Shown here piece by piece: positions 43,901 to 49,900 of a stretch of DNA of 64,000 bases (within the stretch, counting starts at the first letter, position 1; every line of letters starts with the position of its first letter). Position numbers: made by a program. The stretch lies in the NCBI RefSeq assembly GCF_056746865.1, contig NZ_CM163382.1. One strand, written 5' to 3'.

Positions 43901-46900
43901 TTGTAAGGAAGAAACCAGCGATTTAACCTCACCCGGCTTGCCTTTCAACGGATCGGTCAGCGTCAGCCGCACCAGCTCTTTCTTGCGATATTCGAGGACA
44001 ATATTGTTATTACGATCGACCAGGTCATAGCGACTGCCCACAAGGCTACGTCGTGCTGCAACTTCAGCCGGATCGAGCTGTTTTTGCAGTGAATGGCCGG
44101 GTTGCAACGTCAACTCCATACCAATTCGGGTGTCGTTTTCTCCCTGTTTGCCCTGCCGTTGCTCGGCACTAAAGGAGATCAGAGGAACAGGGGTATAACT
44201 CAAACCTGCGGTAATCGCGTGAGGATCATTTTGACGCTCGTCTTTACCAAACAGCGCCACTTCATCGCCATAATATTGTTCATAGACCACCTTGCCGCCC
44301 AGCTGCGGCCAGGCCGGTAACCAGCCTTCGGCGCGAAGATCCCAACCGTTCGCCGGACGTGCTTCATAGTCATTGTCGAGTTCCGGTGCACTACGCCAGT
44401 TACTGAGGCGCAGATAACCGTTGCCGCTCAGTTTCAGGTAATCGCGCCAGTATTCAACGCCCATCCCGGTTCGGGTGTGATAGCGGGTCAGGTCATGATC
44501 GATAAACATATTGACGCCAGACATCCAGCTCGATGTGAAATAACGCCAGCCGATACCGTGGTTGGTTTGAGTGCGATTATCCGTACGGTGAAGTGTGTGC
44601 TGGCTGAAGACCAGGTTATCCGGCGTTTCGTACCAGGGATGGAGAAATTCAAATGACGAGCTTTTAAGGCTGAAATCTTCATCCACACCAAGAGATACCC
44701 GGGCAGTTCCCCAACGGCTGAGCCAGTCCGTTGCCTGCGCAGATGCAGAAGAAGCCACCCAGCCACGCGCCATACTCGCCGCCTGTTCGCTGTCCATATC
44801 GCGAGCTAAAAGTGTTCCGCTTTGCTGCGCCATTTCCGCGACCTGCATTTGCGGATCTTTGCCGTCGCGCTCCATCTGCATTGCTTTCAGGTTGCGCGCT
44901 TCAGGGCTGTTACTGTTAATGAGGGGCACATCTATTTCATCGCCCTGACGCACATTGTCAAAGCCCCGCGCAAAGGTACGGAACTGATTCAGGCGACGTA
45001 ATTCATCAACGGTGATACCAAAGCGTGCCGCGACCGTTGGTGGCGATTCCAACGCACCCAGGGTATATGGAATAGTTTTAACGTTCGGCAGGATCAGTGA
45101 CGCGGCAGTATCCGAGTGCGCAGGATTAATATGCGTAGGGGCAGCAGCCATAACAGGGAAAATAGTTTGTGTTATCAGGCAAATACCGGCGGTCAGACGA
45201 CGTAAACGATCCCCCAATCCACATATGGTGTTATCGCCCCGACGATCGCCATTCCCATGCGCTTTCCCTGCCATTTGTCATCCCTGTCGCTATGCGTTCA
45301 GATTAAATGACCTTTCTTTAACATGAGAGAAAATGATGATTCATGATTAGCAAATGATGAATACAGGCGGAATAATGGAAATAACAACAAGATAAGAACA
45401 ATGCCTGATCAATGGTTATCAGGGGAAGAACAGGAGAGCTTTCCCGCCAGAGCAGTAACCCCTCCTGTAAATACGTTACTTCATTTTCACCTTTGCGGTG
45501 ACCAATAACGCCGTCAGCAACATCAATGTGCCGGACAACATCAACGGCGAAGTCAGACCAATATTATCCAGCGCATAACCGCCGATTGCCGCGCCACAGG
45601 TATTAGCAAGCTGAATAACCGCCACCTGAATAGACCCGGCTTTTTCTGCCTGATCGGCCAGTGAGCGGGTGATCCACGTTGACCAGCCGACAGGAACCAA
45701 TGCAAAAGTTAGCCCCCAGATAATCGCCACGCCGGTAGCAACGATTTTATCGCTTCCCCACAACGTCAGCACCAACGCACTCACAGCCAGTATTAACGGC
45801 GCGCCTGCTAAGGCCAGTTTTACCGAACGTTTAAGAATGAACGACGAAAGCGACGTACCAATAAAGCTGGCGATACCAAAACTCAACAGCACCAGCGTTA
45901 AGCCATCCACGCCGAATCCCGCCAGGTTCATATACACCGGGCGAATATACGTGAAGAAAGCAAACTGCCCGGCGAAAGACATGAAGATGGCGAGCATCCC
46001 TGCCATCACACCCGGACGTTGTAATAAGCGGAAAGTATTTTGTTTCTGATGCGAGGGTTCGCCTGGCAGCGAAGGCAATGATTTGATAATCCAGAAAATA
46101 CACAACACGCCCATCGCCGCCGCCGCATTAAAGACATTGCGCCAACCGATAAGCTCGCCTAAAAAACTGCCCAACGGCGCAGCAATCACCAGCGCAATAG
46201 AAACCGCGCCGAAGATCACCGACAGCGCCTTCGGCACCGTACGCGGCGGTACCAGACGCATGGTCAGCGACGCCGACATCGCCCAGAACCCGCCCAGCGC
46301 CAGCCCCAGACAGGCACGACCGATTAAAAGCAAACTGAATGAGTTAGCAAAGGAAACCAGCAAGCAGGAGAGCGTCAGCAAAACGGCAAACAAAATAACA
46401 ACGTAGCGGCGGTCAGTGGCCTGAATTGTCTGGGTAATAAACAAACTGGCAAACATTGCCACAAAGGCGGTCACGGTCACCGATTGCCCGGCAACCCCTT
46501 CCGAAATGCCTAAATCCTGGGCCATTGGCGTCAACAAACTGACAGGCAAAAACTCAACGATAATCAGACAGGCGACGCAAAACGCCACCGAGAAAACGGC
46601 TGACCAGTTCGGTCGGGTGATGGCATCCGCGCCGCGGTTTTCGGCAATAAATTCACTCATGGTGTTACCCGTGGCATGTTTCAGGGGAAAAGCCGACCAC
46701 TTTAACATTGAAATGTGTGACGCATTTAACGTTTTTGCAACTTTTACGGTGTTGTGGGAAAGTTCGAGGCTGCTCGAAGAAATAAAAATCATAGGGCAAG
46801 GTGATATGTATTTTCGCGATTGTGTTGGGAACAAGGGATAAAGTATTGCACTTGGTGATATACTTTAATAACAGGACCTCAACGATATGCGCGTGTTTAA

Positions 46901-49900
46901 AACCAAATGGTTTGCAAGGGAAGCCAGGTCTCATGCAATAACAGATGAAGAGTTGTGCCGGGCCATTTTAGAAACGGAACAAGGTAAAGCTGATGCACTT
47001 GGCGGTGGCGTTTTTAAAAAGCGCCTTCACCAAAATCGTGAGCGTGCAATTATTCTGGCGAAAGGAGGAAGCAATTGGTTTTACACGTTTTTATATGCAA
47101 AACAGGATATGTCGAACATCAATAGTCAGGAACTGGCTGGGTTTCGTGAAATTGCAAAGCATTATGCCTTCCTGACGAAAGCCCAACTAACAGCAATGAT
47201 TAACACTAAAGAACTGACAGAGATCTGCTATGACTGCAAAAACTAAATTTAAAAGTCCTGCATTTGAGGCTATTCACAGCGCAGCGGCTGGATTGTCCAG
47301 CGTCGATGCTATTTCTGCCGAAACGATGCGTACTTTTGACAAAGCCTGCCTGACCAGCGTGCAAGACTTACAACCTGTTGAGATAAAAGCACTGCGGGAA
47401 AAATTAAAAGTGAGTCAGCCCGTCTTCGCTCACTATCTCAATACCAGCGTTTCAACTGTACAAAAATGGGAAAGTGGCGCTAAACGCCCCAATGGCATTT
47501 CATTAAAACTGCTCAGCATTGTGCAAAAACACGGGCTGGAGGTGCTGCTGTAAATAGAACGTAGATAATGCATTCACCTACTGTCAGTTCCAATACCGGA
47601 TGCGGCGTGAACGCCTTATCCACCCTACAGGTCAGGCGCGGTCTGTAGGCTGATAAGACGAAGCGGTTTTAATGCAGCCAGTGAACGCCCTCGGCAGGCT
47701 GAAAGAACGCGTTATAGCGCATCTGAAAAGCATTAATATCCTGCATTTCAGGTTCGGTTTCGCGCAGAAAACCCAGCGCCAGCCTGACCTGAGCATCAGT
47801 AATCGGCGCGGCAAGGCGGGCTTTTTGTAAAATCCGATGCCATTGCAGCAGATTCTGTTCGCTACCATCGACAATGACAATTTGCCAGATGAGCAACACC
47901 TGCGCGGCGTTTTGCAGGTGCGACTCATCCGGACGATGCAAATAACGTAAAAATTCGTCACCGGCTGACTTTCCCATTTGATCGACCATCGACTCCACGG
48001 GTACGACATCGATATTCAGCCGATCGCTGAGACGGCGAATCGCTTTTCTGGCCCCGGATGTCAGCACCCGAAAACCAACCACAAACACTACCGCCAGCGT
48101 GGCGAGCATTATCCAGATCATGAGTTCTCCTGCGTAATCAGAACTCATGATATCTGGAAACCCTCGCCAGTTACTAATCCACCAGAATAATCTTCAGTGC
48201 AAACAGAGCTGCGACCACCACCACACACAGGTTCAGATCGCGCCAGCGCCCGGTGCACACTTTCATGATGCAGTACGACATAAAGCCAAGTGCAATCCCT
48301 TCGGTAATCGAGAAAGTAAAGGGCATCATCACCGTGGTAATAAATGCGGGCACCGATTCGGTAAAATCATCCCAGTTAACGCGCGCCAGGCTCGAAGTCA
48401 TCAGCACGCCAACAAAGATTAACGCTCCGGCGGTTGCGTAAGGAGGAACCATCGCCACCAGCGGTGAGAAGAACATAACCAACAGGAACATAACGCCGAC
48501 CACAACCGCAGTCAGCCCCGTGCGACCACCGACTGCCACACCAGAAGTACTTTCAATATAGGCGGTAACAGACGAGGTGCCGATAAACGCGCCCGCCACC
48601 GAACTGACGCTATCAACATATAGCGCCTTATTCATATTGGGGAATTTACCGTTACTATCTATTAAGCCAGCTTTATCAGTTACACCAATTAATGTTCCTG
48701 ATGAATCAAATAGGTTGATCAGCATAAAGGAGAAAATGATACCGGCGAGTTCAAGTGTTAACGCGCCGCTCAAATCTACTTCACCAATGACGCCGCTAAT
48801 ATCAGGCGGAATGGAATAGATGCCGCTAAAATGAACATCACCGAAAAATAATCCACAGCAAGACGTCACCACAATAGAAACCAGCACCGCGGCATGAAAA
48901 TGACGTGATGACAACACGGTTATAATAAAAAACCCTAAAATACCTAACAACACGCCGTGAGAACTTAAATCGCCAATCATCACCAGGGTGTCTTTATTGG
49001 CGACAATAACGCCAGTGTTTTTTAATCCCATTAAGGCAATAAATAATCCGATTCCGCTGGTGATGCCAATACGTAAACTTAATGGAATGTTGGAGATCAT
49101 CCAGTAACGGATACGAAACAGCGTGAGCAAAAATAGCCCAATTGCGCCCCAGAATATCGCGCCCATCCCGGTCTGCCAAGAGATACCCATCGCCCCCACG
49201 ACCACGAACGCAAAGAAGGCGTTCAGCCCCATTGCCGGAGCCAGCGCCACGGGTAAGTTAGCAAATATCCCCATCGCAATACTGCCGATACCGGCAATCA
49301 AACAGGTGGTAACAAACACCACTTTCGGGTCCATTTGTGCCGCGCCGAGGATTTGCGGGTTCACAAAAACGATGTACACCATGGTTAAAAAAGTGGTCAT
49401 CCCCGCAATCAATTCTGTGCGGACGGTGGTCCCATGCTGAGGTAGTTTAAATAATCGCGAAAGCGTCCCTGATTCATTACTCACGTAATCGGTATTGTCA
49501 TTATTCATTTTTTTGTCCATTGGAGGAGATTTAATCCCTTGCTTTTGTAAAACAAATGACAACAACGGTTCAGTGATAATTATCACATTTCAATTGCACA
49601 TTAATGGATATTCTTTAATAATCTCGCGACGTTTCTTTATGATAAATAATAATCAAATTGATAAAATCAAAATGAGAAAAATATGAATAATTCTATTAAC
49701 CATAAATTTCATCACATTAGCCGGGCGGAATACCAGGAATTGTTAGCCGTTTCCCGTGGCGACGCTGTTGCCGATTATATTATTGATAATGTCTCTATTC
49801 TCGACCTGATCAATGGCGGAGAAATTTCCGGCCCAATTGTGATTAAAGGACGTTACATTGCTGGTGTTGGCGCAGAATACACTGATGCTCCGGCTTTGCA

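Follow-up and report, generated by a model that had tools for sequence, protein, structure and literature searches.

The region between nepI and yicN on the Escherichia coli chromosome raises the question of what the two small genes found there in some strains encode, and of whether those strains gained them or E. coli K-12, which has none, lost them. We took up this question in a 64,000-nucleotide stretch of contig NZ_CM163382.1 (RefSeq assembly GCF_056746865.1), hereafter the window, which matches the chromosome of the uropathogenic E. coli 118UI at 100% identity. In the window, the genes are flanked by nepI (45476–46660, minus strand) and yicN (47669–48121, minus strand). A first-pass annotation made from the sequence had called them a HigB-2/HigA-2-like toxin–antitoxin pair inserted between these neighbors, and our results support that interpretation apart from the word "inserted". 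The pair is an ordinary, known kind of element that is already annotated in RefSeq. Very probably it is a chromosomal type II toxin–antitoxin operon of the HigBA-2/ToxP–AntitoxP family, in which a RelE-like mRNase is neutralized and autorepressed by its antitoxin, and an old resident of the site that was lost in K-12. The two genes are:

46887–47246, plus strand: toxin gene, 119 amino acids, ATG start; PF06296 (HigB-2/ToxP family), RelE-fold.
47230–47553, plus strand: antitoxin gene, 107 amino acids, ATG start; N-terminal segment (residues ≈5–41) and C-terminal XRE-type helix-turn-helix (HTH) domain (residues ≈46–102).

In the six-frame list of open reading frames (ORFs), the two frames share 17 nt with the toxin upstream, and the coordinates, sizes and toxin-first order given by the first-pass annotation were exact. 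The same toxin-first bicistronic layout, with an overlapping downstream antitoxin gene, was also found in 13 homologous loci. The 17-nt overlap recurs in Citrobacter and Dickeya; such an overlap suggests that translation of the antitoxin may be coupled to that of the toxin. We regard the ORFs as genes and not as chance frames because both products matched Pfam models above the cut-off and because nonsynonymous divergence (dN) from the syntenic Citrobacter copies was far below synonymous divergence (dS).

The toxin matched Pfam PF06296 (PF_RelE) with an E-value of 9e-42 and 142.5 bits (cut-off 27), residues 1–113 aligning with positions 1–120 of the 120-position model. This was the sole Pfam family for the toxin at E ≤ 0.1, and it was present in 120 of 120 toxin homologues among the matches listed. 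The Vibrio cholerae HigB-2 protein (HigB2), for which the query sequence was identical to PDB 5JA9 chain C, passed the same model with 34.5 bits and has been assigned explicitly to PF06296 in a review (PMC11980606). Neither PF05015, the family of Rts1/Proteus vulgaris HigB, nor PF09907, that of K-12 HigB, was matched by the window toxin in the Pfam scan, nor did it match any NCBIfam model. An AlphaFold (AF2) model of the toxin, built on 30 homologues, begins with a strand and had a predicted local distance difference test score (pLDDT) of 87.5 and a predicted template modeling (TM) score of 0.79. When this model was compared with the PDB by Foldseek, ranks 1–8 were all HigB2 chains (probability 0.99–1.00, TM-score 0.43–0.61), followed lower down by other RelE-type RNases that depend on the ribosome: Mycobacterium tuberculosis HigB1, Cami1, YoeB, YafQ and RelE. 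A sequence bridge was provided by ToxP of Coxiella, which is 31% identical to the window toxin over the full length and also 31% identical to HigB2. The link to HigB2 was thus made through Pfam, the fold search and the ToxP bridge, because direct sequence similarity was too weak.

Pairwise BLAST alignments chained through ToxP placed HigB2 residues K49, R51, R64, Y82 and K84 opposite K44, R46, R53, Y70 and K72 of the window toxin, and these five are predicted to be its catalytic residues. The active site of HigB2 is given as five residues (PMC10098735), and activity is lost in its R51A, R64A, Y82A and K84A variants (PMC5416850). ToxP K79, which aligns with window K72, yields a non-toxic protein when changed to glutamate (K79E; PMC10098735). 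In an alignment of 13 diverse toxin–antitoxin pairs, K44, R46, R53 and K72 were invariant. The assignment of R53 to HigB2 R64 rests on two pairwise BLAST alignments and on strand order. A MAFFT alignment set R64 opposite N63 instead, pairing the two "GGS" motifs, and was rejected in favor of the BLAST chain and the strand order.

The antitoxin matched the HTH_3 family of Pfam (E = 6.7e-8, 32.9 bits, cut-off 23). The profile searches that had been proposed for both proteins thus led to PF06296, a toxin family, for the first and to HTH_3 for the second. Residues 46–102 of the antitoxin matched V. cholerae HigA-2 (HigA2; PDB 5JAA_A/5J9I_A) with E = 8e-10 in a phmmer search of the PDB, and Foldseek aligned the antitoxin fold with the C-terminal domain of HigA2 at 39–40% identity, with a root-mean-square deviation of 1.1–2.5 Å and a TM-score of up to 0.84 on the target. 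HigA2 is therefore the nearest solved relative of the antitoxin, both by sequence and by fold. No sequence match between the antitoxin's N-terminal part and that of HigA2 was detectable by phmmer. This part carries a motif, (F/Y)KS..EA(I/V)H...TM..FD, that is kept in 13 homologues, from that of E. coli to those on plasmids of Rhizobium and Legionella, and it was modeled with pLDDT 91–96 in a fused toxin–linker–antitoxin model. Residues ≈5–41 are the probable toxin-neutralizing segment. An identity as MqsA was considered for the antitoxin and rejected: PF15731 scored 26.3 bits (below 30) and TIGR03830 41.1 (below 61.8), the matches covered the HTH half only, and the sequence has no CxxC motif, whereas MqsA has zinc-binding CxxC pairs at its N-terminus. 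The Pfam matches, the HigB2 fold matches, the sequence and fold match to HigA2, the active-site residues and the RefSeq labels given below all bear out the earlier identification of the pair as HigB-2/HigA-2-like.

Upstream of the toxin gene, three elements may control the expression of the operon:

46839–46867, unstranded: inverted repeat TAAAGTATTGCAC-N3-GTGATATACTTTA, with 13-nt arms at 46839–46851 and 46855–46867 that are 85% complementary (repeat search).
46856–46864, plus strand: putative extended −10 element, TGaTATACT, inside the repeat's right arm (read by eye).
46872–46876, plus strand: Shine–Dalgarno-like CAGGA, 10 nt upstream of the ATG at 46887.

The upstream regions were aligned for E. 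coli 118UI, O157, C. koseri and C. freundii, all at the nepI site, and for an Enterobacteriaceae locus and Dickeya, both at a second site next to pabA. The cross-genus consensus of the inverted repeat was AGTATAGCAC-N3-GTGCTATACT, and its core was kept in all six loci, including the pabA-site loci with unrelated flanks. Because the core is conserved where the surrounding DNA is unrelated, the repeat belongs to the module, and it is probably the autoregulatory operator of the HTH antitoxin. A TATACT-like box was likewise conserved across genera. A scan of 46600–47800 for consensus promoters and terminators found nothing, including no −35/−10 pair. The GGA of the Shine–Dalgarno-like element was invariant across genera, and the toxin start was conserved as ATG-CGN-GTN.

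The ATG at 46887 is the ancestral toxin start, which Citrobacter, Dickeya and further genera have conserved. RefSeq places the start at a GTG at 46893, giving 117 amino acids and a start two codons too late; it does so also in 118UI, although that strain retains the ATG. This call probably derives from O157-type alleles with ATA in place of the ATG. The O157:H7 toxin alleles have this ATA together with a G61V change, and in an even sample of 24 carrier genomes, about 6 matched only from base 4 of the query. With the ancestral ATG lost, the O157 lineage may have attenuated translation of the toxin.

Based on the characterized relatives, the toxin would enter the ribosomal A site and cleave translating mRNA through its RelE-like basic active site, and the N-terminal segment of the antitoxin, like that of HigA2, would bind and neutralize it. 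The C-terminal HTH domain of the antitoxin, as a dimer, would bind the inverted repeat over the −10 box and repress the operon, as the conserved operator suggests. As in V. cholerae and Coxiella, degradation of the antitoxin, or a failure to replace it, would release the toxin. Growth arrest by the toxin and rescue by the cognate antitoxin are known for HigB2 (PMC5416850) and ToxP (PMC10098735). ToxP blocks translation, and AntitoxP both rescues and binds the promoter (PMC10098735).

The closest characterized systems differ from the window pair in several respects. V. cholerae HigB-2/HigA-2 (VCA0468/VCA0469; PDB 5JA8, 5JA9, 5JAA and 8A0X) shares PF06296, the toxin-first order and the K, R, R, Y, K active-site residues, and it is the best structural match for both the window toxin and the C-terminal domain of the antitoxin. 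In HigA-2, the neutralizing part is N-terminal and the HTH domain C-terminal, the arrangement predicted for the window antitoxin. However, HigB-2 and the window toxin are only ≈20% identical, HigB-2 has a disordered Gly/Lys-rich β2–β3 loop that the window toxin does not have, and the V. cholerae pair resides in the superintegron, whereas the window pair lies between core genes. ToxP/AntitoxP of the Coxiella burnetii plasmid QpH1 (CBUA0028/CBUA0027) is a direct relative at the BLAST level, with the same operon layout, a C-terminal toxin extension in common, and N-terminal and HTH motifs shared between the antitoxins. It differs in being plasmid-borne and serving plasmid maintenance, in keeping the loop as GKGKRGG, and in having a gene overlap of 4 nt instead of 17.

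More distant systems share the fold or the layout. E. coli K-12 RelE/RelB belongs to the same fold superfamily and has the same kind of active site as the window toxin; the active-site layout of HigB2 has been found to resemble that of RelE (PMC5416850). RelE is nevertheless in PF05016 (PMC11980606), and its operon is antitoxin-first, with RelB a ribbon-helix-helix protein whose neutralizing part is C-terminal. The HigB–HigA pairs of Rts1/P. vulgaris and of K-12 (ygjN–ygjM) are toxin-first, with an XRE-type HTH antitoxin and a ribosome-dependent mRNase toxin, but, unlike the window toxin, their toxins fall into the other Pfam families named above (PMC11980606). P. vulgaris HigA has no disordered neutralizing segment and binds its toxin through the globular domain (PMC5416850). 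Salmonella SehA/SehB is a toxin-first, HigBA-like operon on an enterobacterial chromosome and, as here, its toxin has an extra C-terminal element, but SehA differs from the window toxin in branch, topology and critical residues. Its topology is α1–3/β1–3/α4, the comparison drawn for it is with the HigB of P. vulgaris (25% identity), and SehAB was rejected as an orthologue. Compared by residue number alone, the critical SehA residues Y53, D61, H88, Y91, K93, T95, Y97 and Y98 correspond to R53, G61, I88, H91, Y93, F95, T97 and K98 of the window toxin.

Several observations weigh against an assignment to HigBA-2 with mRNase activity. Searches of the toxin against PDB sequences, by phmmer and with a 30-sequence family profile, gave no match to HigB2 or to other entries, and hhalign against HigB2 returned a probability of 5%. 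About half of the close homologues have Phe instead of Y70. The toxin subfamily is without the Gly/Lys-rich loop of HigB2, and the toxin model has an extra C-terminal helix (98–106) and strand (110–115), in which E112 is invariant. SehA, with its RelE/HigB fold, acts as an inhibitor of RNase III and is itself no RNase (PMC12817084), so the fold alone is no proof of RNase activity. The toxin gene is decayed in a minority of E. coli lineages: several independent alleles are frameshifted or truncated, for example with products of 95 amino acids that run off-frame after residue 60 or 72, one 95-residue product being found on 22 contigs. Since some lineages have frameshifted toxins or have lost the ATG, the module is dispensable, and in places it may be attenuated. 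Finally, the searchable literature yielded no experiments with the pair from E. coli. We consider it unlikely that the enterobacterial branch of PF06296, with its short β2–β3 loop, C-terminal helix and strand, and invariant Glu, has a target, codon specificity or regulation unlike that of HigB2, in the extreme case as a non-catalytic inhibitor like SehA, or that the upkeep of the pair beside nepI in several genera stems from regulation of a neighboring gene by the antitoxin or from an anti-phage role.

The second part of the question, how the pair came to be strain-variable, turns on two further features:

46755–47593, unstranded: strain-variable segment of 839 bp, comprising the promoter/operator, both genes and 40 bp on their 3′ side (delimited by aligning K-12 KLY and by an exact search for the boundaries).
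47594–47629, plus strand: repetitive extragenic palindromic (REP) element TACCGGATGCGGCGTGAACGCCTTATCCACCCTACA, at the right-hand edge of the variable stretch; common to K-12 and outside the module.

That K-12 has no genes at this site, as the first-pass annotation stated, was confirmed: where the window has the 839-bp segment, K-12 has 41 bp. The identical 41-bp filler is present in O111:H11. The last 21 nt of the filler resemble toxin codons 29–34 (46971–46989), matching at 17 of 19 positions, with the two mismatches synonymous and at third codon positions. In 1000 shuffles, the score of these 21 nt was never reached and that of the whole filler was reached 5 times (P ≈ 0.005 or less); no significant match to the lost segment was found for the filler's first 20 nt. 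We also found no integrase, insertion sequence (IS) element or direct repeats flanking the segment. The REP element, noted earlier as lying downstream of the pair, was located with the generic REP consensus GATGCGRCGY-N-RCGYCTTATC; it matched once, at 47599–47620, and none would be expected by chance.

C. koseri and C. freundii have a homologous pair in the same yicS/nepI–pair–yicN arrangement. Between E. coli and C. koseri, amino-acid identity ran from 88% (NepI) through 85% (antitoxin) and 83% (YicN) to 71% (toxin), with similar values for C. freundii. Relative to Citrobacter, the antitoxin had dN/dS of 0.04–0.05 and dS of 2.1–2.3, compared with 0.05–0.06 and 1.7–2.2 for yicN. For the toxin, the proportion of nonsynonymous differences was 0.15–0.20 and synonymous sites were saturated (proportion 0.75–0.77). 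Because the same slot is occupied in Citrobacter and the divergence is like that of the neighboring genes, the pair is an old vertical resident under purifying selection, and because the filler retains toxin codons and Citrobacter has the pair in the same slot, the K-12 state is a deletion. The pair has been passed down vertically since before Escherichia and Citrobacter separated, and the lineage that gave rise to K-12 and O111:H11 lost it by deletion. The earlier description of the pair as "inserted" is contradicted by the Citrobacter copies in the same slot, by the yicN-like synonymous divergence and by the toxin codons in the K-12 filler.

Over a longer time scale, the module is mobile. 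It has a second chromosomal home directly downstream of pabA/argD in other Enterobacterales, where it adjoins fic–yhfG in some Enterobacteriaceae and an AraC-type gene in Dickeya. In a Klebsiella aerogenes record labeled "plasmid 12", nepI is again beside the pair. Relatives with 30–57% identity were found on 184 plasmid records from Rhizobiales, Coxiella, Legionella and Pseudomonas, one of them directly after parA and a stability determinant, and these plasmid-borne relatives support a capacity for addiction, one of the two roles suggested earlier; for the other, phage defence, the analysis gave no support. Two records filed as plasmids, NZ_CP141089.1 and CP125156.1, are multi-megabase chromosomes, and the matches there do not represent plasmid carriage. 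In the phage collection searched, no genuine phage record carried a homologue. AFYI01000003.1, which is filed as a phage, is a 515-kb contig of Salmonella Infantis with a homologue at 69% identity, so some Salmonella carry one.

Within E. coli, the distribution check that had been suggested found the 667-bp pair in 1716 of 5426 complete genomes, O157:H7 among them. It was always single-copy, chromosomal, at the same site and 95–100% identical. The flanks were present in 5403 genomes, about two thirds of which were without the pair, and the empty sites listed all spanned 1103 bp. Every carrier listed had the labels "type II toxin-antitoxin system RelE/ParE family toxin" and "helix-turn-helix domain-containing protein" from RefSeq and its Prokaryotic Genome Annotation Pipeline. 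The labels "Toxin HigB-2/Antitoxin HigA-2" appear in E. coli genome comparisons (PMC10304320), where the same locus could not be confirmed. The only "divergent" copy in the collection, that of HS-02 (NZ_CP172818.1, 76.7% identity), was rejected as a divergent allele: the assembly is homopolymer-ridden and the copy annotated as frameshifted, the mark of a sequencing artefact. The "relE-1/yiaG-1" pair of the adherent-invasive E. coli strain NRG857c and of CFT073 was likewise rejected as the same pair, as it lies at a different locus, yiiD–fdhE.

Three other explanations were weighed against an old resident mRNase operon. The one that fared worst, and which we regard as very improbable, is that an islet with the pair was recently acquired by horizontal transfer into an originally empty nepI–yicN spacer, perhaps targeted to the REP element. 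The boundary between presence and absence does fall exactly at the REP element, homologues on many plasmids and at the pabA site of other genera show that the module can move, and the toxin is just 71% identical to the Citrobacter copy, compared with 83–88% for the neighboring genes. However, C. koseri and C. freundii occupy the same slot, the identity of the antitoxin (85%) and its synonymous divergence match those of the flanking genes, and the E. coli alleles show high identity, single copy and a constant site. The toxin codons in the K-12/O111:H11 filler differ by synonymous changes only, and nothing resembling an integrase, IS element or direct repeat lies at the flanks of the segment. 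Slightly less improbable, though still unlikely, is that the toxin has the RelE fold without being an mRNA endonuclease, having another target, as SehA does, with the C-terminal extension specific to its subfamily as the active part, or that the pair now works chiefly as a transcription factor whose partner has been tamed. SehA offers a precedent: it is a HigB-like toxin that is no RNase, and its critical residues are located in an additional C-terminal helix (PMC12817084). The window toxin, too, has extra C-terminal elements with an invariant E112, its Y70 is not strictly conserved, and in some lineages it is frameshifted or its start codon is lost. SehA, however, is on a different branch and its critical residues do not coincide with those of the window toxin, in which the four basic HigB2 active-site residues are invariant. 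The nearer relative ToxP, moreover, has the C-terminal extension in common with the window toxin, inhibits translation and is non-toxic as K79E.

The third explanation concerns the role for which the pair was selected, and would leave mRNA cleavage in place: anti-phage defence by abortive infection, as opposed to stress response or selfish addiction. Toxins of the RelE/ParE superfamily have been discussed as defence toxins (PMC11980606), and the antitoxin weakly matched HTH components of systems in the PADLOC collection. Against this, no family of PADLOC-DB matched the toxin, no homologue was found on a genuine phage record, and the pair lies between housekeeping genes and not in a defence island or prophage. 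Furthermore, the site has been held since before the Escherichia–Citrobacter split, and two thirds of E. coli lost the pair without replacement. We therefore judge a defence role to be unlikely, and retain the HigBA-2-like mRNase operon, resident at this site and lost in K-12, as by far the most probable account.

On the 3′ side of the operon, the REP element sits between the antitoxin stop codon and the yicN stop codon (47669), the two genes being convergent, and a second hairpin lies between the REP element and the yicN stop. Hairpins were predicted in this region, but they were no more stable than those of shuffled sequence (z = −0.85). An Rfam scan of the pair region found no family at threshold; naRNA4, a REP-derived family, scored 33.5 bits on the REP element against a gathering score of 59.5.

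Farther out in the window, other features were noticed. Positions 27960–45274, between yicS (≈27366–27659) and nepI, hold the eip/eilA/air island, which is present in 118UI and absent from K-12. The island encodes a SycD/LcrH-type type III secretion system chaperone, an SctE translocon subunit, an IpaD/SipD-like needle-tip protein and the HilA-family regulator EilA. Its Air/EaeX protein (35018–45274, minus strand) is an inverse-autotransporter adhesin of 3418 amino acids with many near-identical immunoglobulin-like repeats. Islands classically integrate at the tRNA-Sec gene selC (23407–23501); here, only a small fragment of a rhuM pseudogene (≈23581–23709) lies between it and setC, and this looks like what is left of an earlier island, not like one still in residence. 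An IS200C transposase gene (≈51561–52019, minus strand) lies between adeD and uhpT in 118UI.

The pair is thus one more type II module that separates many pathogenic and wild E. coli, such as O157:H7 and the uropathogenic 118UI, from K-12. It provides a clean natural case of the loss of a toxin–antitoxin system, for which K-12 is a ready-made null host.

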